NCBI GenBank assembly: GCA_040437565.1
Contig: JBDOQK010000002.1
Coordinates: forward strand, 620,001-684,000
Reading direction: 5' to 3'
Length of the DNA stretch: 64,000 nt
Source: Albugo candida
Lineage: Eukaryota
The notes under the pieces are model-generated. The model was not told where the DNA came from and ran no database searches. It saw only the letters and a program-made list of their open reading frames with translations. Of this stretch, positions 2,291 through 35,807 are shown piece by piece. Every line of letters starts with the position of its first letter. Position 1 is the first letter of the stretch. The position numbers and the translations under genes are program-made.

Positions 2291-2566
2291 GATGATATGC
2301 GAAGCTACTTAGTCATATCAGTATCGGCATAGATTTCCGCATCGATTCATATTCTATTGTTCTTTAGTACATTTGGAGTACAGTTTGTATTCGAAGGCAT
2401 TCCACAACGTGCGAGATGAGAGATCAAATACAATTGAGCACAAAAGCTGTCACATCATACAATTTATCGTCAATCAATTCGATTTTGATTTTTTCCCATC
2501 ATTACAGTCATTTTGTCGAATCAAATTGGTCGTTTACGGCGCATCGGCGGCCGCAGCTACGAGTCG

Positions 2567-4762
2567 ATGATTTGGAGAGAGGACTGCGATCCGTACGAAG
2601 AACAACGAAAAAAACGGCAATATGCCAAAGATTTGACGATGCAGATTCAGTATCAGAAGCAGCAGAAAGAACAAGAAGAACGCGAATGGGAAGAATTACA
2701 GAGGAAGTTTCAACCGGATGATCAATCTCCAGCGAAGTGGATATTACAAGGTGGCAAAGTTTATCGAGATCTAAATGGACCCAAGCCAGCAAGTCATCGT
2801 GTTGCATCAACTGCCCCGAATGTTAAGCATTGTTTTGAACCAAGTCCCATCCTAGAGACGCATGAGCAATTCAAACCGACCGACACATTCGATAATGCGG
2901 GTGCTCAAGATGCCTTAATTTTCGAGAGAAAAAGTCCAGGGAGAGCTCTCGATACATCAAACCCCTTGGCTCAACATCCAAACTTTTGTCGATTTCGAAT
3001 CACAGATTACGATCAGCAAACCGATCGAATGCGTGAAAAGGTACAGCAAATGGAGTGGGAGCAAACTTTGGACGCGCAGTTGCGTGAAAAGGAATCAATG
3101 AAGATACGAAGTGTACAAGAGGACAGATGCAAAGAACAAGAGGGTCAAAACGGCTTTTCTGCGTGGAAAAGCCCGTATCTGATTGCTGAGAAGGAAACGG
3201 AATCTCTTGACAGCTCAAATCGTCCGAAGCACTCACAAAGAGACCCAATAACGTGGAAAAGTCACCTTGACAGTACCAATTCGCTTGCAGAAGATTACCA
3301 GTCACCAGGGAAGACTTACGATGATGTTTCTAACGCTAAGAAGCTACAAAGAAGCGGCATTAACATGCCACCACCACCTCCTTCGTCCTCAACATACCGG
3401 CGGCCTATTTTACACAGTCAAAGCCCTGCAACATTGCACGATAAGACTAGCCCACTTGTGACACAGAGGTTGCAAGCAAACGATAAGGTGCTAGAAGAGT
3501 CTCGTCAGTTGCTGGCTGATATACGCAATGAGAGAACTCAGCTACGTAAAGAAAAGGAAGAGTTGCGATGGGAAAGAGATCAAATCTGTGAAGAGCGTTT
3601 GATGCTTCAACTGGAAAATGAACGGGTACTAAACTTGCTCGACAAACATGCTGACAGGAAGCTGAACGACTCCATACACGAATTTGTTCCGATAAAACAA
3701 TGTGTAAAAACGAACGAGGCTATGCGAAAAGAAGATTCTGATGATTTGCCTGATTCTGCGAAGCAAAAGCGTCAGTACCCATGCTGGTCTCCCGCTGTTG
3801 CTAAGATCAACGTGTATCCTTCAAATCCACTAAAAGAATCTACTAACTCAAGAAAATTCTCACTAAAAAAATCTAATGGTACATTCAAAATTATTGATAG
3901 TGATGCGACAGAAGTTCGAGTCGACAGAATGGATTCAAGCCACTTGAGAACAAAAGATCCTTGCCAGCGATCTTACACACCAATGACAATGGAAGAATTT
4001 AATAATCAAGCACAACTTTCCTTGATCAAAGACTCAGAGTCCATGCGTCTTCAGAGACCTCGGCAATTCAGACTGGCACTCCAATCTCCTACTTATCGTG
4101 CCCCATCAACACAGGTCTCCTTTTCCTGCGGAGATCAGCATTGTGAGAACAACATGACGGAGAAACCACTCACAAGCGAAAGCAAACTTGTTCCAATTGC
4201 AGATAAGTCGAATAGGGAACGTGTTGACGTTACCGAAACGCTACTCGAAGAGAGCGTTTTGGACGGATCGAGTAGACAGAGACCGCCCGAATTACTTCAG
4301 GCCAGCGGTACTACTGACCACATAAAAAGTAGACTCAATCCCGATTTTCTGCAATCTGGTGAAAGAACTGCACACACTTCAATACGCTACAACGAAAATC
4401 ACCCCAGAAATCATTTATCCGAATCAGAAACTCGTGCTATCAAAAGTAAGGGCTTTTATAATCTGAATGTGGATCAAAGCGTTCCAGAAGAAGTATTTCG
4501 AAGGCGTAGCTCCGTTGGATTCCGATCACCTTTTCCGTCCAAATCGTCTACGAAACATAAATCTAAAGAGAAAGCAAAACATCATAAAGAAGAAGCAAAC
4601 AAAAAATCAAGTGTTAATCCAAGTCCCATAGAGTCTTTAAAGTCAAACATAGCGAAAAGAGAGGCTAAAATTCCCGAAAGCAGCGCGATTGATCAAGATG
4701 CAAGCATCAATAGCAAGGAATTGGGCTTTTTCCAAGTCAAAGTATTCGATAATGAATCATAA
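2567..4762 (+). CDS. hypothetical coiled-coil/disordered protein, possibly CSPP1/CCDC66-like centrosomal or ciliary protein
   Basis: Uninterrupted 749-codon ORF (first ATG about 2567); motifs YAKDLTMQIQYQKQQKEQE and WEQTLDAQLREKE; central coiled coil. Confidence 0.7.
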   Translation: MIWREDCDPYEEQRKKRQYAKDLTMQIQYQKQQKEQEEREWEELQRKFQPDDQSPAKWILQGGKVYRDLNGPKPASHRVASTAPNVKHCFEPSPILETHEQFKPTDTFDNAGAQDALIFERKSPGRALDTSNPLAQHPNFCRFRITDYDQQTDRMREKVQQMEWEQTLDAQLREKESMKIRSVQEDRCKEQEGQNGFSAWKSPYLIAEKETESLDSSNRPKHSQRDPITWKSHLDSTNSLAEDYQSPGKTYDDVSNAKKLQRSGINMPPPPPSSSTYRRPILHSQSPATLHDKTSPLVTQRLQANDKVLEESRQLLADIRNERTQLRKEKEELRWERDQICEERLMLQLENERVLNLLDKHADRKLNDSIHEFVPIKQCVKTNEAMRKEDSDDLPDSAKQKRQYPCWSPAVAKINVYPSNPLKESTNSRKFSLKKSNGTFKIIDSDATEVRVDRMDSSHLRTKDPCQRSYTPMTMEEFNNQAQLSLIKDSESMRLQRPRQFRLALQSPTYRAPSTQVSFSCGDQHCENNMTEKPLTSESKLVPIADKSNRERVDVTETLLEESVLDGSSRQRPPELLQASGTTDHIKSRLNPDFLQSGERTAHTSIRYNENHPRNHLSESETRAIKSKGFYNLNVDQSVPEEVFRRRSSVGFRSPFPSKSSTKHKSKEKAKHHKEEANKKSSVNPSPIESLKSNIAKREAKIPESSAIDQDASINSKELGFFQVKVFDNES

Positions 4763-5557: not shown

Positions 5558-8185
5558 TCAAGATATATATTCTGGATTGGAAGCGTCAAATTCCTTTTCG
5601 TCCACCTCAAATAGCTGTGTAGTGGGTTCATCGGGCAGTCTTATTGTTTGCCCGCTAAACTGAGCATCTGCTAATTTTCGATGCATCCAGTCTTGCAATA
5701 TTTTTTGCTTTTGCTTCCGATAATTTTCACTTTCTTCTTTATACTCCTTCACTTGCATCTTATACAACCCCAATTCCTCTTCCATCTGTTTCATATGACT
5801 TCGTTTTGCTTTCAGTGTTTCTTTGTATGCGGCCAACTGATCCAAAACCTGCGTTCCGACTTGTCGAGATAAAATCATCTTCAATTCGACATATAGTTTT
5901 TCCTTCTCCAAAATCACCAAATCTTTTGTCGCTATCTCATCGAACTTCTGTACCAGCTGACGTTGTACTATGTGCATGTTTTTTATCATCGCAAAGCGCA
6001 CTGGGTCAGACTCTTCCAGCCGGCGCCATCTATGAACATTAAGAGGGTGACTGAGCTCACTTGCAAGAGCTTTTATTTTTAGTTTTTCTTCGGCCAGATC
6101 TTTCTCAAGTCGTTGTGCTTCCTTATTCAGATCCGACTTCACTTTGACGTTCTCCTGGTCAGCATTTTGCGCAAGCTGCATTTCGTGGATTTGACTTTGC
6201 ACTATTTCTATCTCTTTGCTTCGCTCTTGTAACTCTTTTGCTCCTTGGGAAAGCGTGGCACTTTGTATCTTGATTTTCTCATGAAGAACACGCAATTCAT
6301 TCTGACATTGAAGCACTTGCTGTCGTACTTTATCACGCTCTTGTATAAGTTGACGAAATTCGTTCTTCTGACGTTGTTTTTCAAGATCCGCTGTACAAAT
6401 AATCTTGGACAATTTAGTCATCTCGACTTCCTGATTTTCCATAATCTGCTCCGATGAAGTTATCTGTTTCTTGAGTCGAGTGAGTTCATTGCGTAATAAT
6501 TCTTTGCCTTTATCAACTTTATGATGATCAAAGTGCTCTTTGACAAGAGCATGATCTTTGCAAGAGATTTCTTCCTTCAGTCGCTCAATTTGATCATTTA
6601 ATATCTTGAATTGTCGTTTGAGATCGCTGATGGTCTCTTGCGCCTCTATAAGCTGCTTGGAATACACGTTCCGGTCTGCACGTAAAGTCTCGTACAAATT
6701 CTGCTGTTTCTTCAGTCGTCTATCACTTTCACTTATTTTCTGCTGAAGTGCAGCTACCTGCGTGTCCTGCACTTTTGCCTCCTTTAGTAGAGATTGGTGT
6801 TTTTCGGACGCTTGTTTTGCATCTAATTCATATTTTTCACGTTTATCGATGAATGATTGAATCTTTTTCCTTTGTTGCTTGACCAAATCTTTGAATCCTT
6901 GTACTTCGTTCTGCAAGTTTTTTTGTGTATTTTCTTTGACTTTGACTAAATCGTACACAAGTTGAGATTGATCATGAGCCCGAGTTAGTACTCTATTGAG
7001 AGATTCTTGCTCTCGCTGAATGTGCTGAGCTTTTTTCTCCAAAGCGCTCCGCTTTTTTTTTTCATTTTCCACATTTATGTTCAAAACAGTCGCAAGATCC
7101 GCTTGACTCGACTCCTGCTCAGTTTGACATTCTACGTATTTCCTAGCGACCTCATGCAGCTGCTCTCTGGCTATCTGAATAAGTTTCTCAACCTTTATAG
7201 AATCTTTCCGGACCAATTCGGTTTTCTCTCGTTCATGTACAATATCATGCTCTATTTGCTCATTTTCATGCTGCAACTGAATGTTCTTTTGCCACTGTGC
7301 TTGTGTGGCTTCAGTGTAAATGTGAGTTGATCGGTAAATATTGTCAATTTGTTTCAGGTATTTGTCCACTTGAGCTTTGCTGTCTCGCGCGTGCGAGTCG
7401 TCTTTCCTTAATTGGTCCTCAAGATCATTGAGTTGAACTTGTTTTGTACGCATATCTTCGGACAAAATACCAAAATACAATTTTAGTTTGCGTAGCTCTC
7501 TTTCAAGCCGGGCTTTCCGACGAGTCCCACTTTCGGTATCCCGTTTCTTCTCTTCAATCAAATCCTGTTTGCGATCTCGTTGCTCTGTCAAATGTTCATT
7601 TTTTGCTGCAGCTTCCTCTAAAAGTATCGTCAGATTCGCTATGTCTTTTTTCAAATCCTCCAGCCGAATTCTCTTGGTTTCTATTTCCTGAACAATTTCG
7701 GACTTCACCGTTCTAAGCTTCAGTATGCGTGACATTAAGTCAGATCTAAAGCTAGTGCCATCATCAGATGCGGGGTTGTGCGCGGTTCCTTGCTGGTTCA
7801 ACACAAGCAATTCATTTTGTACGATGCCTAGTTCAAGCTTCTCATCGTTAAGAGTCTTTTCTTTTTCTCGTTCTGCACGTGTGGAGGCTTCGAGTTGTGA
7901 GAAAATCACATCCAGCTCCGCTCGACATTTCTCTTTTTGAGCCGAAGCTTCGTTTTCTTCTTCCTGCTCTCGAGTTCTGAAGTCATGTATCACACCAATT
8001 TCCTCTTTAATCTCAGCGTTACGCCTATGCAATACCTGTTCGCTGTCCTGAGACCTTTTATAGATTATCAAAAGTTTTTCAAGCTCATTCCGAAACGATA
8101 CAATAGTATCAGGGATACGTGAGATGACTTCTTGAACATCATCAATCAACTCATTCTTTTCCTGCACTAACTCGTCCGATCGCAT
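5558..8185 (-). CDS. CFAP58: cilia- and flagella-associated protein 58 (CCDC147)
   Basis: 875-aa coiled coil with LYETLRADRNVYSKQLIEAQ, QIERLKEEISCKDHALVKEH and PLNVHRWRRLEESDP signatures. Confidence 0.9.
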   Translation of the reverse strand: MRSDELVQEKNELIDDVQEVISRIPDTIVSFRNELEKLLIIYKRSQDSEQVLHRRNAEIKEEIGVIHDFRTREQEEENEASAQKEKCRAELDVIFSQLEASTRAEREKEKTLNDEKLELGIVQNELLVLNQQGTAHNPASDDGTSFRSDLMSRILKLRTVKSEIVQEIETKRIRLEDLKKDIANLTILLEEAAAKNEHLTEQRDRKQDLIEEKKRDTESGTRRKARLERELRKLKLYFGILSEDMRTKQVQLNDLEDQLRKDDSHARDSKAQVDKYLKQIDNIYRSTHIYTEATQAQWQKNIQLQHENEQIEHDIVHEREKTELVRKDSIKVEKLIQIAREQLHEVARKYVECQTEQESSQADLATVLNINVENEKKKRSALEKKAQHIQREQESLNRVLTRAHDQSQLVYDLVKVKENTQKNLQNEVQGFKDLVKQQRKKIQSFIDKREKYELDAKQASEKHQSLLKEAKVQDTQVAALQQKISESDRRLKKQQNLYETLRADRNVYSKQLIEAQETISDLKRQFKILNDQIERLKEEISCKDHALVKEHFDHHKVDKGKELLRNELTRLKKQITSSEQIMENQEVEMTKLSKIICTADLEKQRQKNEFRQLIQERDKVRQQVLQCQNELRVLHEKIKIQSATLSQGAKELQERSKEIEIVQSQIHEMQLAQNADQENVKVKSDLNKEAQRLEKDLAEEKLKIKALASELSHPLNVHRWRRLEESDPVRFAMIKNMHIVQRQLVQKFDEIATKDLVILEKEKLYVELKMILSRQVGTQVLDQLAAYKETLKAKRSHMKQMEEELGLYKMQVKEYKEESENYRKQKQKILQDWMHRKLADAQFSGQTIRLPDEPTTQLFEVDEKEFDASNPEYIS

Positions 8186-8301: not shown

Positions 8302-11300
8302 ATGACTGACGCAGCCAATGACGAACAGAAAGCGGAGAACGACTTTTCTGCTTCATTGGTTTCTTTTCCATATGAACCATATAGCATACAATTGGACTTT
8401 ATGCGCAGTTTATGGCAAACCATAAAGAAAAAACATATCGGCATATATGAGAGTCCTACGGGGACGGTATGAGGCACCATTTTGCTACTTTTCTTGTCTT
8501 GCTAAACGCCTGATTATCAGGGCAAGTCGATGAGTCTGATTTGTGGTAGTCTTTCTTGGCTCTACAAAAATACAGATAGTGCTGGCTTACTCCAAGAAAA
8601 TGACTGCTGCGATGGAAAAGGAGAAACTGGTTTGTCCGGGACAGAAGAACCGGCTTGGTTGGCATCTTACGAACACAGCAATATCTCGCGCCACAATGAA
8701 GCGATTCAAAGTACGATTGAGACTGCTCTTGAACCAATACGCAACATTCGCCAGCGAAGTGAGGAAACTCTCTCGAAAAATAAGCGCAAAGTCAGTCAAT
8801 TGTCAGTTCACAAGCAGCTTGAATCCCACGGAAAGCGATTCAAAGGTGATAAGACAAGATGTGGTAGATTGAGTACGGATCTAAGCGGAAGGAAAAATGA
8901 TGATCTGGTGTCCTCATATGACAGTGATGGAAGCAAAAGGGATGATCGTTGCGAACCGTTTGGCAACGCAAGTGCGATTGGATTAGGCACAGAGAAAGGC
9001 AAAGGAGTCATGAAGGTATTTTGGATTATATTTCATGTAATTGAATTAGTCGTTTGAAGCTCCTGTGTGTACAGATTTTTTACTGTAGTCGAACACATTC
9101 GCAAATTTCTCAATTTGTTAGAGAAATGCAGAAAACAGTGTTCGGAAAGCAAGTTCGGGTAGTCACGTTGGGCTCTCGTAAACTTCTGTGCATCCATCCG
9201 CGAGTATCCAAATTAAATTCTGACATTGCTATGATGGAAGGATGTTTAGACCTTCTACGTCACGTAAAGAAGAGAACGGATCCGTCCTCGGCCTCTTCAT
9301 GTGCGTTCTACAATCCAGACGCCTTGGATGAGTACAAGAATTATGCACTGGTAAAAACAGAATTGGAGTAAACAAGCTGTGATGACCCGTAATGCTGTAG
9401 GCACATCTTCATGATATCGAAGATTTACACCAACTCGGACAAGAACTTGCAGTTTGTCCTTACTATGGAACACGTCAAAGTCTCGACCTGGCTCAAGTAG
9501 TGGCGCTGCCGTATACGATGATACTGAGTGCCCAAACACGTGAATCGCTTGGTATTGATCTGAAGGACAACATCATTATATTCGACGAAGCTCACAATAT
9601 CCTGGAAACTGTACAAGATATCCATCGTGCTGAAATCGATAGTACAAATATTGTCAAGACGCGTCGCTGTTTGTGGCGATACCTTCAAAAATACGAAAGT
9701 CGACTAAAAGGCCAAAACTCTTATTACATCAACCAGCTACTTGCAATACTAGAAAGACTTGGAAATTTCTTGCGTCATATACGGAAAGTCATAAAAGGAG
9801 AGCCGGAGACCTCGAAGAGCAACATCGTGGAAAGAGAATTGGAAAGGCAGCTTGAAGGCCACAGTGAAGTAATGCACAAAATGTTACGCATTGGAGACTT
9901 CTTGTGCGAAGCAGACCTGGATCATTTTAATTTATTCAAATTGATACGTTATCTCGATCAAAGCGACTTACCAAAAAAGCTCATTGGATTTGTCGAGAAG
10001 CTGCAGACCTCTAAGAATGGAGGACTTCCGAATGATGGCAGTACAGCTGAATCAGATGAAACGGAATTAAACAGCAGGTACATCTCACCTTTAAGAACAC
10101 TTCAATCATTCTTGCAGGCGCTGATCAACAATAGCATCGACGGAAGAATTCTCGTGAAAATCACTGATGTAGTTTTCTATACTTTCTCCCGTGAGCACAG
10201 ACTTCCTCACACGTCTCTGTATTTTATATGAGTTAGCCATTCAAGAACATTTCAAGTTTGCAGTACTTGCTATTAAATCCATCCCATCACTTTGAGGATA
10301 TAGTGAAAGAAGCCCGAGCAGTCATTTTTGCAGGTGGAACCATGCAACCGGTGATGTATACTTTTACCAAAGAAGAGGATCAAATCTCACGCAGATTCTA
10401 TCGTAGGTTCAGCATCTTTTCGACCAGTTACTGCCTTCAGTTCCCCGAGAAAAGATAGATGTATTTTGCTGCGGCCATGTAATTCCTCCGACAAACCTGA
10501 TGGGACTTAGTTTATCTACAGGTCCCACACGCCAGATTTTGGAATTTAACTATGCGAGACGAAATTCCCTCGAATTATTCGACGAGCTAGGCCGCATTCT
10601 TTTCAACTTCTCAAAAATTGTTCCCGGTGGAATTGTGGTGTTTTTTCCTTCGTATAAGTTGGAAGCAACTATCGTGAACCGATGGCGCGATACAGCACAA
10701 TATCAAAATCTTGAAAAACAAAAGAAAATTTTCCGAGAGCCGAAGCGCACGGACGAATCAGACAGAATTTTGAAGCAGTACTCTGACGTGTGTAAGAGCA
10801 AGGAAATTTTAGGCCATTCTCATTGCAACTCTGGGGCAATTTTACTCAGTGTTGTTGGCGGAAAGATGTCGGAAGGTATCAATTTCAGTGATGAATTAGC
10901 AAGGTAAGCTGTCGCACGTATCCGATCCCTCCATCCGTTTTTATAATGGTATGCCTAGATGTGTTGTAATGGTTGGGCTTCCATACCCGAACGCAGCTGA
11001 TCCCGAACTTTTGGAGAAAATGGCATATCTAGATACAAAAAGGAGCGGTGAAGGTAGGAAATATTACGAGACTCTCTGCATGAAAGCAGTGAATCAGTCT
11101 ATCGGTACGTTGACGTTGGTGCTCTTTCTGATTCATGAGTAATGCTGTCGCTATCTAGGTCGAGCCATTCGCCATATCAGTGATTATGCAAGCATCGTTC
11201 TTCTTGATCAGCGCTATGAGAATCATCTGATACGTTGCCAGCTGCCAGAATGGATACAGAAGAGAATGCTTCCAGCAATTCAGGTATCCCAGTCTTTTGG

Positions 11301-11358
11301 GAAAGCGTATTCCAACCTGGTGCAATTTTACTCCAGTCACCGCAAACGTACAAGGTAG
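8302..11358 (+). CDS. DDX11: ATP-dependent Fe-S DNA helicase DDX11/ChlR1 (XPD family), multi-exon
   Basis: [10 protein letters not shown]-motif; Walker A ESPTGT|GKS split by an intron; [47 protein letters not shown]. Confidence 0.95.
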
Positions 11359-11372
11359 GGACGCTAATGATA

Positions 11373-14300
11373 CTATACAAGTTTCGCATACTCATCTCGA
11401 ACGATCTGTTTCGCGATCGCGAACATCCTTCCGGCCAGTTCTTCGTCTATATATGACCAATTGATACAAATCTGCCAGTCGATCGTGACAGATAATTCGA
11501 TAGATCGTGTTTTAATCCACAAATCTTGACGGTGCATAGGCGTATCAAATAACCATTGCTTTCCTTCCTCTACAATCAATTCAAGAATGTCCATGACATT
11601 AGCCTGAGGCTGTTCTTGATCGTCTTCTTCCTCATCAGAGGCAATTGAAGCCGATAAAAGAAAGGATATTCCCGATGAAGCAGGGTGAGTATCTTTCTTA
11701 CGCTTCCGAGTGGCTTTTTCTGGGACGTACTTCCATGACTTGCTGTATTGTAGATTGTGACGCGGTTTCTTCAGTCTTCGGATCCCCGCTCCAGTCGTCA
11801 TAAGCATCATTTTTCGTCTTGTTTCCGCTATGATAACGCCTTGCACATCTTGTGGGTTCTTCAGAAAGGTTTTGTGTATCCGAATGGGAATCGATCGAGA
11901 AGCGAAAGGTATGTGCATGGGACCATCGAGCGGTACGTGATCGATTTGCATGTGAGTTCCGATATACGGATCCTTTTTTAGCTGTGCCAACAAGTACTTC
12001 CCTATGAATTTATCATCATCAGACACTGTTGACGAAGAGAGTAAGACGTGCTTGGGCGCTAGCTGACGTGCCATGTCCACAATGCTCTTGGCATCGATCT
12101 CATTCCCGCATGGAAAGTAATGTACACCGCATTCGATCTCGATACCAAGCTTTTTGCTGGCTTCGCTCCGTTCTGGATCGGCATACAGCGAATAGCTCAC
12201 GTTTCCTGGACAACAGTCTTCCGATAACACAATGAGATTTCTTGGATCATTGGCCAACGCCTTTAAAACCCTGCAAGTATCTCCTTGGGCAATGTTGGCT
12301 GGAGTTGTAAAAACTAAGAAAGAAGAGGTTTTTCCTTGATCGTGCAGTAGTTTCCAGTCAAATGGTTGACAAAAAAAAGTCTTTTGCCCGTCACTTCCCA
12401 TATGCTTATTAAAGTCTGCTAAAACGTCCCGATATGCTTTAGACAGAATGGATGTTCCCAACAAACTCGACAATCGATCAGGATACTGAATCGCTGAATC
12501 CGTCNNNNNNNNNNNNNNNNNNNNNNNNNNNNNNNNNNNNNNNNNNNNNNNNNNNNNNNNNNNNNNNNNNNNNNNNNNNNNNNNNNNNNNNNNNNNNNNN
12601 NNNNTCGTCTTCTTCCTCATCAGAGGCAATTGAAGCCGATAAAAGAAAGGATATTCCCGATGAAGCAGGGTGAGTATCTTTCTTACGCTTCCGAGTGGCT
12701 TTTTCTGGGACGTACTTCCATGACTTGCTGTATTGTAGATTGTGACGCGGTTTCTTCAGTCTTCGGATCCCCGCTCCAGTCGTCATAAGCATCATTTTTC
12801 GTCTTGTTTCCGCTATGATAACGCCTTGCACATCTTGTGGGTTCTTCAGAAAGGTTTTGTGTATCCGAATGGGAATCGATCGAGAAGCGAAAGGTATGTG
12901 CATGGGACCATCGAGCGGTACGTGATCGATTTGCATGTGAGTTCCGATATACGGATCCTTTTTTAGCTGTGCCAACAAGTACTTCCCTATGAATTTATCA
13001 TCATCAGACACTGTTGACGAAGAGAGTAAGACGTGCTTGGGCGCTAGCTGACGTGCCATGTCCACAATGCTCTTGGCATCGATCTCATTCCCGCATGGAA
13101 AGTAATGTACACCGCATTCGATCTCGATACCAAGCTTTTTGCTGGCTTCGCTCCGTTCTGGATCGGCATACAGCGAATAGCTCACGTTTCCTGGACAACA
13201 GTCTTCCGATAACACAATGAGATTTCTTGGATCATTGGCCAACGCCTTTAAAACCCTGCAAGTATCTCCTTGGGCAATGTTGGCTGGAGTTGTAAAAACT
13301 AAGAAAGAAGAGGTTTTTCCTTGATCGTGCAGTAGTTTCCAGTCAAATGGTTGACAAAAAAAAGTCTTTTGCCCGTCACTTCCCATATGCTTATTAAAGT
13401 CTGCTAAAACGTCCCGATATGCTTTAGACAGAATGGATGTTCCCAACAAACTCGACAATCGATCAGGATACTGAATCGCTGAATCCGTCACGTAAATGGG
13501 TATGCTTGCGAGCTGATAATTCTTCCAGTATCGATAGAGTATGGTCATCAACTCTTGAATGAAGCCAGTGCGATGCACTGGAATGATGACTTTTCCACTA
13601 GCTTGCAAACTTTCCAAAATAGCTTTTACGAGATCGTTCTCCATCCCAGCCTTTGTTTCCGAGACTGATACCGCATATCGGCTACTCGTTAAAAGTAGAT
13701 CTGGATACAATCGTGGAATATCAGATGGCACTACTACACAGGTTCCATTATTATTAAATCCGTTGACGTAGAATAATGTAGTTGTCGAGGTAGGTGAGAT
13801 CATCTCAATATGAAAGCACGATCCTCCAAAAGTATGGCCTGCATGGTACGCTGTGATCATCAGGTTGTCATTGATTCGAGTCTTGGCTCTCAGAGAGACT
13901 GCGGTTGCCTTGTCAAAGGCTTTTGATATATCTTGAGCATCGAACAATGAGGATGAAGTCGAAGAAGAGTTTGTGCTCGGAGAGTTTGGATATCTCTCCT
14001 TCCTACGATCAATCGAATTATGAGCTGTGAGCTACTTCGCATGCTGACTAAAACGTACCAGAGATCAGATATGACTTTCTTAGAAAGCGCGCGTGTCGCA
14101 TGCGTCATTATTATACTTGTATCTGTGGATGATAGTATCTTCTCAGTGAGGTACGGAAGCATCCAGCATGAAGCCGGACGAGAATCACTAATCAGGATAG
14201 CATCCAAGGCATACAATTGCTTATCCGGTGATTTTTGATCACCAAAATCCATCAATGCCTTCAAGTAATGCCTTCGTTTCCTACCTCGAGAAGGTTCTTG

Positions 14301-14504
14301 ATCCGATGTGCGAGTACTTCCGGTACCCGAGCCGCGTGCAGTTCCCTTTCCAAAGTCATCTTCATAAAAACTTTCTTTCTTTTCAGAATCATTAACGTTA
14401 GATGGTATGTATTCACCACATCCGAGTAAAATAGTCGTGTTGGAGGCACTCTCACGAACGATAAAGGCAGCTCCATTGCCGAGCTGCTCGACACTCAACA
14501 CCAT
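11373..14504 (-). CDS. INTS11: Integrator subunit 11 / CPSF73-like MBL-beta-CASP protein with degenerate active site; internally duplicated by an assembly overlap
   Basis: IMTHATRA, AYHAGHTFG, GKVIIPV...QEL, DAKSI...LAPKHVLL, C-terminal WSYIDEELA; one intron about 14003-14058; ORFs 13890-14546, 12478-13947 and 11373-12629 join once the duplicate is removed. Confidence 0.75.
11620..13489. repeat. 885-bp direct duplication flanking a 100-N gap (11620-12504 = 12605-13489), probable assembly artefact
   Basis: Identical sequence either side of the gap at offset 985; duplicated ORFs in the track. Confidence 0.9.
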
Positions 14505-14679: not shown

Positions 14680-17600
14680 TTACACCCATTCAAATGTCAT
14701 TTGAGCAGATGGACGCGCGCGAACACGTCTCGTCACTTTACGTTTGCGGAGCCATTGCCTGAGTCCAACGTTTTCTACACTCCAAGAGTCTCGTTCGCTT
14801 GGATCACTTTCTCGCATTTCGGTAGAGGCAATGCATGGCTGTGAGTAGTTTGTATCTCCTCGTGGTTCAAGCTCCAGTGATCGTGCATAGCGACTTTCCT
14901 CCGAGTTGTAAGGCAATTCCGCACGCAACATTTCCTACATTGAGAGATATGTCATTTCAACGATACGTGTACGTCTTGAGCAATACGAACATTGATCTTA
15001 AGATCCAAACAAAGCGCATAGGCCACAGATTTTTTGTGCATTATATCCAGCACGAGTTCACCAGAAGTAAACAAACGCTTACGGTTCACGTGTTTCTGCT
15101 CTGTGACAATTGGAATCTCACTCAGCGCAACAAAATTCTGCACAAATGACGAATGACATCAAGCAGTGTACTATTTCATTGAAAAACTTGACATTGTACC
15201 TGAAGATACAAGCCCAAATATGGCATACATGGGGCTGCTGACTCAATCATCATGCGATTTAATTCGCGGCATCCTTTGTCGCAAAGCAATTGCATTTTGT
15301 GCAATGACTCTTTTGCGCGATCATGTAGCTACAAAACCGTCACTTTGACTCACTCTCAAAGATAAAGCGATGAGACACGTACGCCTTCAAATGTCCTTCG
15401 CAGGCGATGTATTGCTGTCGATTGGATCGCATACAAGACAGCGGCTAACGTATCAAAGTTTCGCAATGTCAAGCAGTGTTTCGCAACCTATATGATAGCG
15501 ACGATTATTGCCTGTAGTTCCATAAATAAAACCTCACCTTGAGAAAAAAGCGTATATTTTTCCGTCTTCCCTCAGCCGTGGGTTGTGACAGTATTACATT
15601 GACCACAAATGCTAAAAGCTAGGCACAAGAAGCAGTCAGATGAAGATTCATCGCGTAATCAATTCACAATCGATTCCCACATGCTGAAACCACCGTTTGG
15701 CACAATGAAAATGTTCGGATCGATCAATGGGCTTGCTCTTCATAAAATCGTCCACTGGAACACACGATGAATGCATAAGTTGATTTGTGTTTCATCGATC
15801 AAATCGTAAACGTACCAGGGATATCAGAAAAGACCGCATGGGTCGCAATGGTGCAAAATTCTGCAAAACGGGTTGGGCTGATGAGTCTAAGCGAACAAAA
15901 CTTTGTCAGTAACAACTGGATACTGCCAACTCAATAGTTCACTCACGAAGCGATATTTGCTACAAATTTTTCTGTGGAATAGGATGACGAGATGCAATCC
16001 ACAATACTTTGACGTGCTCGTGGATAAATGTCATGTATCAAAGACTCATCTCCATATAGAGAGAAGCAAGCATTTAGCCTGTCTACGTATTTTGTCATCA
16101 AATTGGAAGCTTCGCTTATTGGACACTGATAATGCTGGGAAACTGCTTGAGAAAACTGCTGCCAAATATTAGTATTCATGGACTCATTTGGAAGCTTCAG
16201 AAATAAAAGAATGGCCACAAAAAACATAAATCCGCGAACTAGACACAATATGCGTGAGAGACACCGTCAATAATAGCCAAATACTAATTGTAGGACTTAC
16301 GTTTTACTTCTGACCTAGAATAAACATCCACCAGCTTCAAAACATCCTCCATAGAAGTCATCGAGTCAATGAAAAATATAAAGGAAACCACTTCACTGAA
16401 TTCCAACCATGGATTGGATAGGTATGTCTCCATCATTGTGTCCACGGTGGAATTTGATGTAGACAGTGCCAGAAGATTTGCTTTGACACGTTTCGGTGTT
16501 GTCATTTCTGACCAACAATTTTGAGAAGTTCTTAACAAAAGTTTTCTAGCACAATAAGCACTCTCGTTGTCATGGTATTCGTCCGCTGTGAAGGAGAAAA
16601 TATCTTTGTCGTCGCTCTTGAAACCCAACTTGCCGACTTCGCAAATACTTTTCCTTCGAGCTGCAAACAAAATACTTTGAAAGCCACGATACACAGCTGG
16701 CTGATCAAACATAGCTATAAGGTGACGAACTCCTCGACCAAGCATATCCAGTTGACTCAGATCACATCCAGCTGCCGAAAGGAGTCTCATGCAACTCTGT
16801 GCGCTTTCAGCATTGATATGCCCATTCGAGCATGACACGAGCGCTACGATGATTGGGTTCTCTCCAAAACGATTCGTCTTGTTTGGATTGGCCCCGGCAT
16901 TAAGCAAGCATTTAATCAAGTCTACTCTTCCATGCCGCGCAGCCATATGGAGCGCTGTGTCCCCATTAGAGGCTATGCTGTTCGGATCTGCTCCTTTGGA
17001 TACGAGAAGGTCCACAAGTTCTGTTTGCTGGGCCGACGTGCTTACAAGTAATGCAGTAAATCCCTCGGACCATGCAGTGTGATCAATAGTGCATCCTAGT
17101 GCCAAGACAGTGACAGCAGCCTCATACATGCCATTCTCACACATTGACATTAGCGGTGTGTATCCTCGATGATCAAGTGAATCTACTTCTGCGCCATGTT
17201 CAATCAATTTCTGTATGATGCGAGCTGTATCAACTGACTTTCCGGTGACATGAAGTGGTGTTTGCCCCAAGTGGTTCTTGATATTCGGATTTGCATTGTT
17301 TTCTGATAAAAAGCAGACTGCCTCATATCGTCCATGACAAGATGCTGCAAGGAGAGGACTACCTTCACTGGGTATCGGAACCAAGCCTAAAACTTGTTTT
17401 CCACGAGAACTTTCCCAATGTGTCACAGTATTCATATCAACCTGTTGGGCTGAAAGCCATCTCAATGAATCCAAATCGCCGCGTTTTGCTGCCAGACACA
17501 TTGAATAGTGCAAAATGTCAAGGTCCAACTCCAACTGATTATGATAATATTCTTCGCTGAAAAACGTCAGTCGTTTCGGTAAAGCTGCTTCTCGTACAAT

Positions 17601-19238
17601 GCTGCAAATGTTTTGAAGCGGCATAAAAAACACGGGTGTATCATTGACTGCCACGAGAGAGAGTCCAGTGTCAATAGCAAGACTCAGAGCAGCTTGAGAT
17701 TGTCGTTGAATATTATGCACGATAGCACCACGGCCATTCACATCCGTCGTTAGCTGGATGCCAATGTGCTCTGTAGAAATGGTAACAACTGAACGCGAAC
17801 ATTCTGGCGCTAGTAAATTCTCAGAAGTTATTGCCTCGGTTGATGGTTTGAAATCTATGATCCATTTGATTGCCTTCAAAAATGCTTTGACGGCTGGAAC
17901 TGCTGTGCTGCAGACGGGATGAGTCTTATACGTGGATTTGATGATGATACGCAATGATACAAGATCTTCAATCGCTGTAAGAGACACAGCATATCGAAAC
18001 ATCGCGCAAAGAGTGCTTTCCATCAACATGCTCAATGATCCATGTAAATGGGTTATACTAAGAGCGGCTTCTTTGCCTGCACATACAATAAATTCCAGCT
18101 TGTGAGATGGAAGTGATACATTATCGATTCCATCTATCGCCTGTATTATTGAACTCCATTTGCAGCCTCCAAGCATCTCTTCAGTCAGTCCGAAATCGAT
18201 GATATCTCGCTGTTTTTGTATCGTGATTCTGTTTTGATTAAGCTTCTCACGTAGCTTTCGAAGCTCTTTTGTTTGCAGTGAAGTATGCAGAACATCGACA
18301 TGGGGAATAAATACGCGGTCTTCAATCTGACGGCGTACAAGTTTGATCATCTCATTTCCGGGCAATACTTCCAAGTAAGGATCTTCATAAAGCTCTCGAT
18401 GATAGTGATCGATCACCGCACTCTCCACTTGCTCAATAAGTGAATTCATTATTGCAAGGATATGAAACCCAGTTGATGATCTTTTTTTTGCACTAGCTTT
18501 GAATTTGTGCAGCAACTTGACAATTTCTTTTCTCGTCACAAAAAACTTGTTGAGGTGACGAGCGACAGCAATTGATGCCATCCGTTCTTCAGGCGCAGTA
18601 AGATCAAATTCTGTTTTATCAGGTGGTGCCAATTGGCGTGTTGAACGTAAAACGCTAACCCATACCTCCGCTTCCAATTGCGTTTGCGCATGACAGAGTA
18701 GACGATAGAAACCTTTTCTTATCTCGAAACTATAAGCTCTGTTAGTTTTCCACGCATCTATGTATTGTATTCCGATTATTCCTTCATTCAACTTGATATA
18801 ACCCTTCATCTTCACATCCCCACGCTTCCTATAATACGCTAAGGTTCCGTCCGTATAGAGCACAAAGAATCGTACTCTCCAACTCTTCCTATCATATTAC
18901 ATAATACATTTAGTAAATCCAATAGTTGATAGGATAGTAATGTGTTCAAGGTACCAGAGATGTCCTTGCTTTCTAAGCCACCCCATTTTAATATATTCAC
19001 CCATAGCCAGCATTCGTGCATAGTGTCGCTCGTTTGCAAGTCGTCTCGCCTCCAGGCAGATCTCTTTCTGTTGCTCCAAGTGCCCAGTAGTGGACGATTG
19101 ATGTCGATGATGTAACGAGACAAAGTTCTGATTCAAGAGATTATTCTTTTCATATAAAGCTGGTGATCCTATTGGATTCTCTCCGATGTATTTATTTTCT
19201 GAAAAATAGACTTTCGGTTTAGCTTGTTGTGCTCGCAT
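14680..19238 (-). CDS. multidomain protein PH - VPS9-like - PDZ-like - ankyrin repeats - RasGEF (CDC25), multi-exon
   Basis: PH: IKMGWLRKQGHLW|KSWRVRFFVL...EAEVWV; VPS9-like: LPSHKLEFI; PDZ-like: GIQLTTDVNGRGAIV...LVAVNDTPV; ANK: GQTPLH, GYTPLM, GDTALHMAA; RasGEF exons: PTRFAEFCTIATHAVF, APCMPYLGLYLQ, YARSLELEPR. Confidence 0.8.
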
Positions 19239-22766: not shown

Positions 22767-25700
22767 ATGCTGGACGGTAGCGATGTCGTTGGTGCTTCAT
22801 CCAAAGCATCCCTTTCACCGTCCAACACACAAGCTGATCCACATGCGCAGACCCAAAAACCAGATTATGTCGATGGCAATTCAGTACCTACAGCCGCATC
22901 GATGACACAGACACACTCTAGTTCAGATCGAGCCGTCAGAATTTTTTCTGAAAGTAATGCACAAAGCGAATCTCGAAATTCCCTCATGGAGGCTTATCAA
23001 ACTCATGTCAAGGTGCTTTTCATTCTGCGTTCTAGTATTCTTCTCGATTTCACAGTGCTCGAATAGGTGGAACGATTACGACGAAAAAACGAGGTCAAGA
23101 AACTGCTTGTTCATGCGCGAAGGAAGGCCGTTGCTCACACTACCAGTTCACAAGCGACGAGTTCAGACAAGGCTAGACGTCGTTCACATCACAAGGATAG
23201 AATTTACATCCACCATGGAGGTGAAGGCGCATTTGTTAGTAGTTTGTTGCAAAGCAAAAGCAAGGAATCGAAAAAAGCCTTCCCAAAATTCAAATTACCA
23301 AAGTTACGCCAGCGACATCAAGGCGACATGCAGATCCATGATATTAGCTGGGCTGCTCAAAAAATCCAGAATGTCATGAGACGCCACATTGCTGTTCAAA
23401 TTTTTCGAAAAAAATTATATGGAGAAGAGGAAGCTGCACGAACTAGAGCAGCACTTGGCAAGAAGTTGTTCGAAGAATGCTGCAAGTGCAACGAGTTTGT
23501 AAAACGATCTATTGTATCAAGCGATGGAAATTTCAGGATAGCAGGACCGAATCTGTCGCAAATTAGACAGCTCCTAAAGGAGGGACATAGTAGCAAGTTT
23601 CTGGATTTACTACAGCCGCATGGAGTGGCGCAGTAAGTGCACAATGGTCGCTCGCAAGCGTGCTTAAATCATAATGTCTCGATTTTCTAGACTCACAGCA
23701 CTTCACGCCGCCGCGCAACGGGGCTACACAGAAGTATCTCGTGAGATTATTGGAAGTTGGCTTAAACAAGATTTACGATACTCTCCAAACGAGCCATACT
23801 CCATCACTGCACTTGGCGACATTCTTATTTATCTCCAACAAATGCGAGGAAGAAATAAGCTGCTATGCGAAGGATCTCATGAGAATTATCTTCGAAATCT
23901 GGTCAGCCAATTGAAGATTGAAGATTACAGCCATTTTCGTGATGGCGTCGATAATTTACTTCTAATGGATGATACGATTGAGCTGACGCTATCCCACATT
24001 GTCAAACTGTGTGGCCATCCGCTAGTTTTAAGTATCGACTCGGCAGGAAATACGCCTTTGCATTACGCGGCTGAAGGCGGATATCTACCGCTATGTGAGC
24101 TATTCCTCGATTATGGAGCCAATATAAATCAGCAAAATTCTGCAGGAGAAACACCGTGAGAAATTTGCTGTATTTACTTACTGAGCTTGCTGATGTGAGC
24201 CATTGTAGACTTCACTTTGCCATATCAAGCATGCATGAAGACGTTTGCCATCATTTTGTTCATCAAGGAGCAGACGTGAACTTGAGTCGTTATGTTCAGT
24301 TGACACTGCTAAATAATGTCACTCTAACTGGTACATTTGTCGACACGCTGACCGAAGAAAACGAATACTGCAAAGTGTTTCCCGTTCTACGGTCAAATTC
24401 CAAACGGGCTGGAGCTGCAGAAGAAAGTGGCTTTCGTGAGAAAACGATGCTTGAGTTGTCGAGCTATTTCAGCTTCATACCAAGTTGGGTCACACAATTT
24501 TGCAAACCGAGCAACACTGCTGCAGCTGCCCGCACGAATGCTCGACGACCCAGGGTATCACCCGGAATGCCATCCCCTGATTTGATTAAGAGAAAGGCTG
24601 ATGGAGGAATTGATGCCCGCTTGCCGTCCGTTATCACAGTTGCAGACGGTCTTGTCGTCCGGATCAAATCTTTGGAAACAGCTTCCCCTATCTTCCGAGG
24701 TCGGAAACCGAGGGATATCATCTACTTTCGAACCTCCTCCGGAAAAATATCAGTTCGTCCAAACACGCTCTGCGCTTTTGTTATTGGAGAGCACCTTGCT
24801 TTCTCCGACGCTTTGGATGCACGTGAGGAACAAGCTCGGACGAAATTACTTCATTTATTGATACGATTTGTCCCGCATGTCGCTACCCATGCAATCAATA
24901 ACTTTCGGACGCCGCTTTTTCGGTGTACACTGGCGAAAGGAGTCCGCTCGTATCGACAGCGTTGGATACTAAAAAACAGTATTCATTCGAAAGTTGCCAA
25001 ACGCGATGGATTACTACTGGCTATGCAACAAGATGCTACCAGTACGGCGCTGGCTAAGAAAGCTGGCCTCGAGACTCGTATCAAATTCATTCAGACGGCA
25101 GGGATGCTTCGAATCAAGAATCAAGAGCATCAGCGGCTTAAACGTTTACGACGTCGCAAATGCACATGGAACTTGTTCCTCTTAATATGGCGTGGGATGA
25201 AAAAAGTCTGGAAAACAACCATCCGATTTTGGCGGTTTTTAAGCATTCAGAGTGCGTTCGAGACCGAAAGCAGGGATACAAACGAGCGAGAAGACATCAT
25301 CGGGGAGCCGAAAGGCATTCTATACGAATACGTGTATGATAGTGCGGAGTATGGTGGAGGAATCAGCCCGACACTCGATCTGATTCTAAAGGTTTGCTAC
25401 TGCTCGCCGGCCAGGCTTCAAAAATTCTTTACGCTATTTTATTCATAGACCGAGCGAAAAGAGCTGATGTATCATCCATGGGTCACACAGTTGATGGATC
25501 ACAAGTGAGCTTCTCTTTGCCTATTCCTTGTCATGTCAAATGACCGCTTTTGCACACACTAGATGGAATTCATTTGCTCGGCGAAAGCTACGCCATGAAT
25601 TTCGTATTTATTTCCTGTACTTCGTATCCTACTTTATTTCTACGTATGCCTATCATCGCTACAGAGTGCCCTACACGAAATGATTCTAGCCCTTGTANNN

Positions 25701-27110
25701 NNNNNNNNNNNNNNNNNNNNNNNNNNNNNNNNNNNNNNNNNNNNNNNNNNNNNNNNNNNNNNNNNNNNNNNNNNNNNNNNNNNNNNNNNNNNNNNNNCGC
25801 TACAGAGTGCCCTACACGAAATGATTCTAGCCCTTGTATTCTCATCCTAGCTACTTGGATGTTGGGGATACGCTGGTTGGAATGCCAGTTGGCGGATATA
25901 GCAGTCCAATTTCATTCAGACATCAGAACTGGCAAGAAAATCTACGCGATTTGGGCAAAGTGACGTGTTCCATTATCAATGCATATTACACAGTGCAAGA
26001 GGTTCAGCTTATTGATGGGGAACTTTCAAAAGTTAACTGACTCAGTTTTTGTATGCGTAGTACCGTTCCTATCGAAAGTGCGGCAGTCTACGGATTTACT
26101 TTCGAGATGGATGGAATTGGTTTGATCTCTTGCAGATATGTTGCGTCTGGCTTCTTTTCGGCACCGAAATAGCAGCCTTATCGGATCCAAATCGTGCGAA
26201 AATCTGCTATAGTACTCAACATTCATGCTTCCATTTGATGCTTCGGTTTTGTAGTTCTCACCACGGATGCATACGAGCTCGTTGTGACAGAGGAATCGTA
26301 CTATAATCGGCGAATGTGGCGTCGGTATAAGCTCCGAACCACTCTATTGAGTATTGTCGGCCCTCAAATCTTCATCAAGTGGATACAATTCGCTAGAGGT
26401 AACCAAGTTTTTGGACCTTTTGTCCGGATGATTTTCAAGGTTTCTCGCTGCTTTCATACTTCAATCTGAATCGTGGATTGCAATTTATACGCGTCGATGT
26501 ATAGATGTTTCGGGACATTTTGGTCTTCTTCATCGTATTCTGCGTGTTTCTTTTTGGCTTCGCATTTGCTTTCTTCATTCTCCAGGTTCGATCGCTTATC
26601 AAGGCACATTCACATGTTCTCATTGCGCGCAGTTGGAAGGTTTTCGCTCCTATTTATCCGCAATAACATCCGTTTTCCAATTGAGTGTGGGGTCATGGGA
26701 CTGGGAGAGTATATATGAAGGAGGACCGATAGCAATCATATTTTTCTTCCTGTATACTCTCATAGGAACCATAATGCTGCTGAATTTGCTCATCGCGGTA
26801 ATATCGCTCAGCATTACACGTCTTGTGGAGGTAGGTTTTTTTCTGACTGGATCGTCCACTTTAGATGCTTGGAAACACTTATGATAACATCTGGGAAGAT
26901 CGTCTTCTATTCTATGAGCTGGAACGGGTACATTCGTTATCTAACGGATCGACAATTTACTATTCGTGCTGATTTTGATAGGCAAAAGCAACTCTTGCGA
27001 TCCAGACATCACTGAATGATGACGAATATGACGAGCAATACTGGTGCCGCAGATTGTACGTCCTCGAAGGTGACGCACCAATTGAAGGCATTCAGCTCCA
27101 GAAATTCTGA
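22767..27110 (+). CDS. TRP-type cation channel with IQ-like motif and ankyrin repeats, multi-exon
   Basis: AQKIQNVMRRH; LTALHAAAQRG, GNTPLHYAAEGG, GETPLH; S4-S6 region FARGNQVFGPFVRMIFKMFRDILVFFIVFCVFLFGFAFAFF...GSWDWE...IMLLNLLIAMLGNTYD. Confidence 0.85.
25657..25838. repeat. 41-bp direct duplication flanking a 100-N gap, probable assembly artefact
   Basis: 25657-25697 = 25798-25838. Confidence 0.85.
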
Positions 27111-32508: not shown

Positions 32509-32961
32509 GACCTAGCCATAGAATATTACTATGTCAAGGCATCATTCTGATACTTTGAGCTGAATCTCGGTTAATTGGTTATAAACGACCTAAATGACAA
32601 AAAATCCACTGGAAGATGCTCTTGCCGCAGCTTTGTCAACATTACAACCGGAATCCGGACGGAAAGTTCACAGGAAAGAGATGAAGAGTAAGACGAAAAA
32701 CGCTCAAGCCGAAACGAACAAGCAACCAAGTATTACAGCACCCACAAGAAGGAAGAGAAACTTTCGCGAGTNNNNNNNNNNNNNNNNNNNNNNNNNNNNN
32801 NNNNNNNNNNNNNNNNNNNNNNNNNNNNNNNNNNNNNNNNNNNNNNNNNNNNNNNNNNNNNNNNNNNNNNNTTGGAAATAAGCGATCGCGAGATGAAAGT
32901 AAAAAGAGATGGCTATCTCCCGAAGCGTCATAGTAGATCCGAGCATCTTTGAAGGATACAA

Positions 32962-33959: not shown

Positions 33960-35807
33960 ATGACAAAAAATCCACTGGAAGATGCTCTTGCCGCAGCTTT
34001 GTCAACATTACAACCGGAATCCGGACGGAAAGTTCACAGGAAAGAGATGAAGAGTAAGACGAAAAACGCTCAAGCCGAAACGAACAAGCAACCAAGTATT
34101 ACAGCACCCACAAGAAGGAAGAGAAACTTTCGCGAGTTTGTGCGCGATGAAATTGACTCAGAGGTTGCGCTTCCAAAACTCGTATGGAAGAATCAAAAGT
34201 TGAAACGTACACAAGGCCAAAATCTTTCGAAGCAACCGCCTGGGATCAAACGGACCAAGAATGAAGAAGCAAACACGCTAAAGAAAAGTACAAAGTCCAG
34301 TGGATTGTTGAAGCCACCTTCTGTGACATCCATAGCTAAAATGAAGGATGGTACCATTGCTGGAACCAAAATCGAAGTAACCTCCGCAAAAAATGCTCAG
34401 ATCGGCGCAAACAGAAACAACCGAAGTGGTGTTTGTGCAGTAATAGCTGATCACGGAAAAACTTCCTTGGATGCCCATTCTGACAGAAAACATGTTACTC
34501 TAGACAAACAATGTGACAGTGCAGCTCTCAAGGTCGTACCTACAGGGATAGAGGCTTCACGGAATAAGAAAAAGAAAGGAAAGAACAGGAAATGTGTGAT
34601 GAAATCCAATCTCGAAAGCTCACTGGGCGAGAAAAATGAAAGCGACTTGGCAAACAGAGCAATGGCAGAGTGCAAGGTTACCAAGGCAAGAGAATTAGTA
34701 GATAAAAGCATCGATAAAATCCACGATCAAGATCAAAGCATCTCTGACAAAGAAACAGTACCAGCATCAGGACTGGAGGCAGCACTTCATCAAGTTGATG
34801 GCAATGATTTTATATCTGTTAATAACAAGTCGAAAGATGAAAAGCAATGTCCGGCGTTGCAGGATACTGTCGAGATGCACGATGTCTTTTCGAAGCTCAT
34901 TGACCAAGCAGCACGTGATCAATGGGAGCTACAAGATGTAGGCAGGCTTGTCCGTTTATTTGCTTCGACATGGGACCTTGATGGCGAGAAAACGGCCGCA
35001 TTCGTGCTTCAACATTGTCCCGAACTCGTAAATTTAGACTTTCTGGAAGGCCTCAATCTCAAATTACGCAACGCTGATATATTCAACATTTTGGATCATG
35101 GCTCTGGAAATCTGAATGTGTTGCTGAACAAAACCACCAGCCTCATCGAAAATCACGTCGTTAAGATATCAGATCCCGCATTTCTGTTTTTTCTGAACAA
35201 CATTCTAATCCCCCGTGGAGTGGAAGAGTTCCAAAATAGTGATAGCGTGGCAGAATCTATCGAGCTGTCCCATCAAAATGGCATTATAAATACATTGTCA
35301 CAAATCATGGAAAGCTGTACCCACGTGCGGGATGTTGGTGTGCTTTTGCAAAGCGTGTGTAAAGATTGGCCATCCGACCATATTGTTTCTTTGGTACAAG
35401 CGCTTCTATTGAGCTCTGTGTTTGATGATTTGGAAGGTTCAGACAGGGAATTACTAGCATTTTTGCCTCGGGGCATTGAAGCACGACTGGAATTCCCAAA
35501 CAGGATAGACGATGAGGATGCTGATGAGAATGGAAATCTAAAGGGCTGGATTGTTGACGATGAAGATGGCGAGATTGACACAAAAAGGAATAACACTTCC
35601 AGTGGCTCAGACAACGATAAAGATGATTCCGATTCGGACTCTGCAGTGCAGAGTGGTGAGTCTGACTCAGACGACGAAAAAGCATCAGCCGGTTGGAACC
35701 GCCAAAGAGGAATTGCTTCTAGTCGTTTTGTATTGGATGAAGCAGAAGAAGGCGATGAGAGTGAAGACGAAGATGATACGTCTAAGGAAATCAGTGACGA
35801 CGACTGA
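33960..35807 (+). CDS. hypothetical nuclear protein: basic N-terminus, helical core, acidic tail
   Basis: Uninterrupted 615-aa ORF; NLS-like RNKKKKGKNRK; acidic motifs GNLKGWIVDDE and RFVLDEAEE. Confidence 0.8.
   Translation: MTKNPLEDALAAALSTLQPESGRKVHRKEMKSKTKNAQAETNKQPSITAPTRRKRNFREFVRDEIDSEVALPKLVWKNQKLKRTQGQNLSKQPPGIKRTKNEEANTLKKSTKSSGLLKPPSVTSIAKMKDGTIAGTKIEVTSAKNAQIGANRNNRSGVCAVIADHGKTSLDAHSDRKHVTLDKQCDSAALKVVPTGIEASRNKKKKGKNRKCVMKSNLESSLGEKNESDLANRAMAECKVTKARELVDKSIDKIHDQDQSISDKETVPASGLEAALHQVDGNDFISVNNKSKDEKQCPALQDTVEMHDVFSKLIDQAARDQWELQDVGRLVRLFASTWDLDGEKTAAFVLQHCPELVNLDFLEGLNLKLRNADIFNILDHGSGNLNVLLNKTTSLIENHVVKISDPAFLFFLNNILIPRGVEEFQNSDSVAESIELSHQNGIINTLSQIMESCTHVRDVGVLLQSVCKDWPSDHIVSLVQALLLSSVFDDLEGSDRELLAFLPRGIEARLEFPNRIDDEDADENGNLKGWIVDDEDGEIDTKRNNTSSGSDNDKDDSDSDSAVQSGESDSDDEKASAGWNRQRGIASSRFVLDEAEEGDESEDEDDTSKEISDDD

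Follow-up and report, generated by a model that had tools for sequence, protein, structure and literature searches.

The window analyzed here, a stretch of 64,000 nucleotides (nt) from the oomycete Albugo candida (assembly GCA_040437565.1, contig JBDOQK010000002.1, positions 620,001 to 684,000), carries on its minus strand, at 14504..11373, a gene for an INTS11-like protein. INTS11 provides the endonuclease activity of the Integrator cleavage module, where INTS9 is its inactive partner. The oomycete gene encodes a complete beta-CASP protein of the INTS11 type, which has kept the fold and the two C-terminal domains (CTD1 and CTD2) and lost the catalytic site, and this state is conserved across oomycetes. 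At the locus, two long open frames on the minus strand, with a run of N between them, make up one gene that begins with an ATG at 14504 and ends with a stop codon; the original prediction, drawn from the DNA letters, had placed it within the same two ends (11373..14504). Its parts are:

14059..14504, minus: exon 1, residues 1–148 and two bases of the Trp149 codon, with degenerate motifs 1 and 2 and an insert of about 70 amino acids (aa)
14003..14058, minus: intron of 56 nt, GTACGT...CGTAG, phase 2, which splits the Trp149 codon
12605..14002, minus: exon 2 up to the scaffold gap, with the retained motif 3, motifs 4, A, B and C, the beta-CASP domain and CTD1
12505..12604, no strand: scaffold gap of 100 N inside the gene
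11620..12504, minus: second copy, an exact 885-nt duplicate of 12605..13489; assembly artefact, to be collapsed
11373..11619, minus: last 81 codons and the stop (11375..11373), with an acidic run and CTD2 including W669-SYIDEELAGR

The 56-nt intron was the only one of the splice choices tried that joined the two frames without a stop, and it restores the Trp of an EYW motif conserved in orthologs; a 34-nt alternative enters a TAA and a 27-nt alternative keeps the wrong frame. Collapsing the duplicate, as had been advised, gives a coding sequence of 2091 nt (696 aa) whose frame is open throughout, and the N-terminus, MVLSVEQLGNGAAF, fits the MSxSVERLGNGAAF of oomycete orthologs. The relative P0005, which is 86% identical, reads through the duplicate junction without interruption, and the repeat is missing in all orthologs. 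We read the 885-nt duplicate as an unmerged contig overlap, and reject a real internal duplication, because exact flank duplicates of 41 to 1266 nt, reaching the gap edge, recur at five of the window's 100-N gaps, which number seven in all, those at 54179 and 57019 having none:

12505..12604: gap with a flank duplicate of 885 nt
25698..25797: gap with a flank duplicate of 41 nt
32772..32871: gap with a flank duplicate of 1266 nt
56428..56527: gap with a flank duplicate of 292 nt
61393..61492: gap with a flank duplicate of 136 nt

Gene models that span such gaps will contain false internal repeats or frame breaks. The gap and the duplicated 885 nt might suggest that the degeneracy is not real, and that the locus is a pseudogene, carries sequencing errors or was mis-assembled, an explanation that we find scarcely credible. 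The open collapsed frame of 696 codons leads us to reject a pseudogene, and the loss of motifs is not a sequencing error because the orthologs have the same state: an independent sequence is 86% identical and 34 others are 42–47% identical, all with this motif state. Moreover, the two models that we computed, described below, both fold confidently.

Catalytic positions

We aligned the window protein with 20 oomycete relatives, five distant relatives, 48 active INTS11-like sequences and seven CPSF73 sequences (81 rows). The ten catalytic columns are canonical in 48/48 active INTS11-like and 7/7 CPSF73 sequences, motif 1 excepted (44 D, 1 N and 3 gaps of 48). The window protein, unlike INTS11, has replaced nine of these ten metal-binding or catalytic residues of beta-CASP enzymes and kept only His205 of motif 3, a loss far beyond chance. 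The positions, all on the minus strand, are listed below with the residue counts among the 20 oomycete relatives; the four codons of motif 2 lie within 14186..14169.

14423..14421, exon 1, motif 1, D: G28 in the window protein; relatives G 17, S 2, gap 1
Exon 1, motif 2, first H: D107; relatives D 18, N 1, gap 1
14180..14178, exon 1, motif 2, second H: R109; relatives R 19, gap 1
Exon 1, motif 2, D: A111; relatives G 9, E 8, S 1, D 1, gap 1
Exon 1, motif 2, third H: S112; relatives A 12, V 3, T 3, S 1, gap 1
13836..13834, exon 2, motif 3, H: H205, retained; relatives H 19, D 1
13761..13759, exon 2, motif 4, D: G230; relatives D 17, G 2, A 1
13686..13684, exon 2, motif A, E: S255; relatives R 17, S 1, C 1, N 1
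13086..13084, exon 2, motif B, H: E455; relatives E 20
13020..13018, exon 2, motif C, H: S477; relatives Y 15, S 2, H 2, F 1

The original prediction had read motifs 1, 2, 4, B and C as degenerate, with the His of AGH as the sole survivor; alignment to active enzymes agrees on both counts and adds the change of the motif-A Glu to Ser255. Degeneration affects these same positions in the five distant relatives. The Pfam domain RMMBL, found in 24/24 active sequences scanned, was not matched in the window piece, and was found in 0/4 dead sequences scanned and, at E≤10, in 0/36 members of the dead family, as we call the window protein and its relatives without a catalytic site.

The replacements are themselves patterned. 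An Arg stands at the second-His position of motif 2 (Arg109) in the window protein, in 19/19 oomycete sequences that cover the position and in two distant relatives, and may fill the empty metal site. The motif-4 Asp is kept in most oomycete relatives and missing in the window protein, in P0005 and in Lagenidium. One could thus imagine that the protein is still an enzyme, whose remodelled site, built from Asp107, His205, Glu455 and mostly the motif-4 Asp, would hold one metal ion or catalyze another reaction. All four side chains are able to bind metals and three of them are conserved (D 18/19, H 19/20, E 20/20), but each zinc site has lost the majority of its ligands, neither the Glu of motif A nor the His of motifs B and C is left, the fourth candidate ligand is missing in the three proteins just named, and an Arg at a metal-ligand position is the rule in oomycetes. 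Hence, we hold a remodelled enzyme to be very improbable.

Relationship to INTS11, INTS9 and CPSF100

The window protein shows the domain order of INTS11 (CPSF3L; 7cun, 7bfp, 7sn8, 5v8w), that is, metallo-beta-lactamase, beta-CASP insert, CTD1 and CTD2. In Pfam, the window piece matched Lactamase_B_6 (E 2e-9), and Beta-Casp at 26.1 bits, just below the cut-off of 27.7, which is exceeded in orthologs. Against solved chains, the 465-aa piece encoded by exon 2 scored 105–109 bits with INTS11 (seven distinct sequences), 79–81 with human CPSF73, 62 with Ysh1, 35 with CPSF100 and 21–24.5 with INTS9. A profile of the oomycete family widened these distances, giving 248–255 bits with INTS11, in an alignment that extends into CTD1, 161–163 with CPSF73, 151 with Ysh1, 72 with CPSF100 and 29–37 with INTS9. 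Exon 1 alone yielded a single match to solved structures, at E 1, and motifs 1 and 2 were located via the family profile and the alignment.

The region that follows motif C was compared separately. With hhalign, it matched the C-termini of 44 active INTS11-like sequences with a probability of 97.7% (E 1.4e-12, 144 columns), versus 3.2% for 16 CPSF73 C-termini; the control comparison of INTS11 with CPSF73 gave 92.8%. When a profile of the last ~180 residues was run against all solved chains, eight of the ten matches at E≤10 were INTS11 and none was INTS9. The best was the INTS11 CTD crystal 5v8w_B (E 0.012), aligned on a W-x-Y-x-D-E-E-L motif common to both proteins, while INTS9, present as another chain in 5v8w, was not matched. 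The Pfam domain IntS9_C was found in 0/36 dead-family members, and CPSF73-100_C in 0/4 dead sequences versus 4/4 sequences of the CPSF73 clade scanned.

The predicted folds tell the same story. AlphaFold modelled the full-length Phytophthora infestans ortholog P0015 with a mean predicted local distance difference test score (pLDDT) of 85.4 and a predicted template modelling score (pTM) of 0.76, and the exon-2 piece with a pLDDT of 82.6. In Foldseek searches, INTS11 chains came first for both models (E 4.4e-42 for P0015 and 7.9e-27 for the exon-2 piece), CPSF100 ranked 48 and 43, and INTS9 ranked 49 and 48.

In sequence, C-terminal domains and predicted fold, the window protein is therefore closest to INTS11 and far from INTS9 and CPSF100. 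This is what the original prediction had proposed from the non-catalytic features and from the C-terminal WSYIDEELA, whose region fits INTS11 C-termini, and its view of an intact, full-length protein is sustained by the 696-aa frame and the confident fold. CPSF100 (Cft2), the inactive partner of CPSF73, is likewise an inactive beta-CASP paralog and retains the motif-3 His. We nevertheless rejected membership in either CPSF73 or CPSF100 on the profile scores (72 bits for CPSF100 versus 255 for INTS11), the absence of CPSF73-100_C and the 3.2% obtained with hhalign. One further residue was considered and set aside: Lys462 of INTS11, which according to PMC9525679 contacts inositol hexakisphosphate, is paired with a Lys in the window protein by a low-confidence alignment tail, with an Asn nearby in most oomycetes, which is too uncertain for use.

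Distribution of the dead family

A word-based search recovered 35 homologs, all of them dead, and every named one came from an oomycete (Phytophthora, Hyaloperonospora, Peronospora, Plasmopara, Bremia, Pythium, Globisporangium and Lagenidium). One, P0005, is the 86% relative and the other 34 are those at 42–47%; some are annotated as "Integrator complex subunit 11" in databases. Columns in the alignment of the 36 sequences are on average 55% identical, dozens of those away from the old active site being invariant, and the alignment displays family-specific motifs: PDYRP, CGVHYxPCxDExD, NLIVLSEYC, RRLKKKxH, SFLLS followed by an acidic run, and WSYxDEELAGR. The insert of ~70 aa between motifs 1 and 2 and the conserved basic and SFLLS-acidic motifs set the family apart from INTS11. 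The basic stretch, RRLKK(K/P)xH, lies in CTD1 and, like the SFLLS-acidic motif, is kept in the dead family (11700..11800 of the window, minus); in one INTS11 alignment, it faces uncharged residues of human INTS11. These two motifs could represent a nuclear-localization signal or a new binding surface.

We also ran an exhaustive profile search of 1.84 billion representatives, clustered at 50% identity, which produced 2800 matches; the figures that follow are from the best 150. Besides the family itself, these comprised P0043 (405 bits), P0044 (327), P0063 (223), P0076 (208) and P0137 (161), and active sequences scored from 265 bits downward. Among the best-scoring active relatives were plant CPSF73-II, the ortholog of INTS11, with green-algal and land-plant sequences up to 265 bits, and protist INTS11; unlike the dead family, they retain all motifs. 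The HxHxDH motif was present in 108 of 143 non-family rows. The 35 rows without it were the three distant dead sequences P0063, P0076 and P0137, the degenerate P0129, P0147 with a single His-to-Asn change, and 30 rows that start downstream of motif 2, most of which keep the later catalytic motifs (not checked row by row).

P0063, P0076 and P0137 form a dead INTS11-like group with the same C-terminal domains, an SFxLS-acidic motif and a (K/R)RAIW tail that is missing in oomycetes; a profile built from five distant dead members matched only P0063, plant CPSF73-II and archaeal aCPSF1. These comparisons indicate that the dead state is old and conserved, in all oomycetes sampled and in a second distant group. 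The original prediction had attributed a dead INTS11 to this lineage; the dead state stands, while its restriction to one genome does not.

Two sequences deserve separate mention. P0129, an INTS11-like fragment of 446 aa that is nearer to active INTS11, reads YTGS at motif 4, lacks the motif-B His and has VDG as its motif C, which may reflect either a separate inactivation event or a faulty gene model. P0042, a dead-family relative of 1014 aa with ~480 extra N-terminal residues, may be a gene model fused with its upstream neighbor.

No active oomycete INTS11 appeared among the matches listed; such a sequence lay beyond the reach of the word-based searches, and the matches of the profile search are the best 150 of 2800. 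A candidate clade of active stramenopile INTS11 (P0061 and relatives) proved to be diplonemid, and the other rows among the 120 listed were mostly animals.

Around the gene, the window has a GC content of 37–45%. A DDX11/Chl1-type helicase (Pfam DEAD_2 and Helicase_C_2) lies at 9401..11358 (plus) in several successive frames, probably owing to short introns, and is convergent with the INTS11-like gene, the stop codons being ~15 nt apart. The neighbors at 5558..8185 (minus) and 16284..18896 (minus) are, one or the other, a CFAP58-type flagellar coiled-coil protein and a protein with a PH domain and ankyrin repeats. Four long frames had no Pfam match at E≤0.001 (449 to 1055 aa):

2489..4762, plus: long open frame
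24099..25448, plus: long open frame
33960..35807, plus: long open frame
53403..56570, minus: long open frame

Phylogeny and possible role in Integrator

Phylogenetic trees included the dead family, active INTS11-like sequences and CPSF73. In a FastTree analysis of 139 rows, from which rows shorter than 450 aa, among them P0129, were left out, the dead sequences formed one clade of 17 with a support of 100, and a clade of 27 rows was identified as CPSF73 by the presence of CPSF73-100_C in 4/4 members scanned. In an IQ-TREE analysis (LG+C20, quick search, 70 rows), the dead clade (10 rows) and the CPSF73 split both received 100 in the Shimodaira–Hasegawa-like approximate likelihood ratio test (SH-aLRT); the dead clade lay on the INTS11 side of this split, with no supported sister and a weakly resolved backbone. 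The window protein branched outside Phytophthora, Pythium and Lagenidium, inside the clade with P0043 and P0044.

We favor, with a probability of about 0.55, the reading that the window protein belongs to the Integrator cleavage module as a subunit without catalytic activity, in an INTS9-like role beside an active nuclease encoded elsewhere. The dead protein would sit in the inactive-partner seat of the module, which beside INTS11 is taken by INTS9 and, in the other pair, beside CPSF73 by CPSF100, and would be held there through CTD1 and CTD2 by pairing with a partner beta-CASP protein; the cut would be made by another nuclease, either an active INTS11 paralog or CPSF73. With its catalytic residues lost, as in all oomycete relatives found, the protein probably serves as a structural partner that does not cut. 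The original prediction had suggested a scaffold, or a replacement partner for an active paralog, which would imply a rewired machinery for small nuclear RNAs. Small nuclear RNA 3′ processing in Arabidopsis reportedly needs CPSF73-I and not the INTS11 ortholog CPSF73-II, which would be a precedent for an outsourced cut. As described in PMC8501993, an active/inactive pair is the rule in the beta-CASP family, and RNase J1/J2-type pairs of bacteria follow the same pattern, the inactive paralog being kept as a partner; these pairs are, however, prokaryotic and belong to another branch of the family.

Several observations weigh against this reading. No partner was found, in that no oomycete active INTS11, INTS9 or INTS4 occurred among the matches listed. 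The CTD profile reaches only marginal E-values (0.012 to 0.087) with solved chains, and Pfam IntS11_C matched only 2/36 members of the family (best E 0.042), although it also matched just 1/20 active non-CPSF73 sequences. D107, H205 and E455 remain, in most Phytophthora together with the motif-4 Asp, and some metal binding is possible. INTS9 and CPSF100 rows were left out of the trees, and when the 27 active INTS11-like sequences of a 38-row subset were forced into one clade, the approximately unbiased (AU) test did not reject the constraint (p-AU 0.495, log-likelihood 0.34 higher). Because of this, the trees do not tell three placements apart, and fit alike a fast-evolving INTS11 ortholog, an INTS11-derived paralog and an older sister lineage. 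Finally, in a feature search of the ESM Atlas, which gives no alignment and no E-value, clusters bearing IntS9_C ranked first (0.95; on 51% of 71 members) and third (on 28%) and INTS11-like clusters second and fourth, versus rank 16 for the IntS9_C-bearing cluster with an active control query. Such a resemblance fits a pseudo-nuclease, and fits true INTS9 ancestry as well.

This last result leads to the suggestion that the dead protein is the oomycete INTS9 ortholog, slow-evolving and still similar to the INTS9/INTS11 ancestor, which would be an ordinary finding. The degenerate motifs, the long insert between motifs 1 and 2 and the place outside all active INTS11 that the AU test allows would agree with it. 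We nonetheless consider it unlikely: INTS9 is a pseudo-nuclease of the same fold and a likely functional analog, but its likeness to the dead family is weak (37 bits versus 255 for INTS11, and places 48 and 49 among the fold matches), IntS9_C is missing from the family, the CTD profile picks the INTS11 chain and not the INTS9 chain of 5v8w, and the best 150 matches of the profile search include no INTS9-like sequence. Ordinary INTS9 orthology is thus disfavored by sequence, domain and fold comparisons. The grouping with INTS9 or CPSF100 that would have run counter to the original prediction is not seen by sequence, CTD or fold, whereas the trees, which lack these two proteins, permit a position outside active INTS11.

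An alternative that we regard as somewhat less doubtful, though still well behind a partner role, is that the dead protein is the sole INTS11-type subunit of oomycetes, the ortholog itself having died. Oomycetes and the KRAIW-tailed lineage would then be without a competent INTS11, their only INTS11-type subunit being a pseudo-nuclease that predates the radiation of oomycetes, and Integrator would either not cut or leave the cutting to another nuclease, for example CPSF73. All 35 recovered oomycete homologs are dead, no active oomycete INTS11 is among the matches listed, databases label the protein INTS11, and in the tree it stands among INTS11 lineages with no supported active sister. That no active copy was seen is, however, weak evidence, given that one was out of reach of word searches and that the profile search was confined to the best 150 of 2800 matches among 50% identity clusters; the only candidate stramenopile INTS11 clade that was followed turned out to be diplonemid, and pairing of active and inactive members is usual in the family, as stated in PMC8501993.

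We found no paper on INTS11 or INTS9 of oomycetes or stramenopiles; an "integrator complex subunit", not further specified, is mentioned in a proteomics study of Phytophthora (PMC7285336). Automatic labels of "Integrator complex subunit 11" imply an activity that the dead-family proteins, judged by their residues, would be unable to have. INTS11 is regarded as the catalytic heart of Integrator, and yet an INTS11-type protein whose active site has been dismantled is kept, clearly under constraint, throughout a whole class of eukaryotes, among them major crop pathogens. If the protein is indeed a partner, an active/inactive beta-CASP pair would have arisen anew from INTS11, in place of INTS9 or in addition to it; if the protein is instead the only INTS11 of these organisms, Integrator would be able to work without a nuclease of its own.

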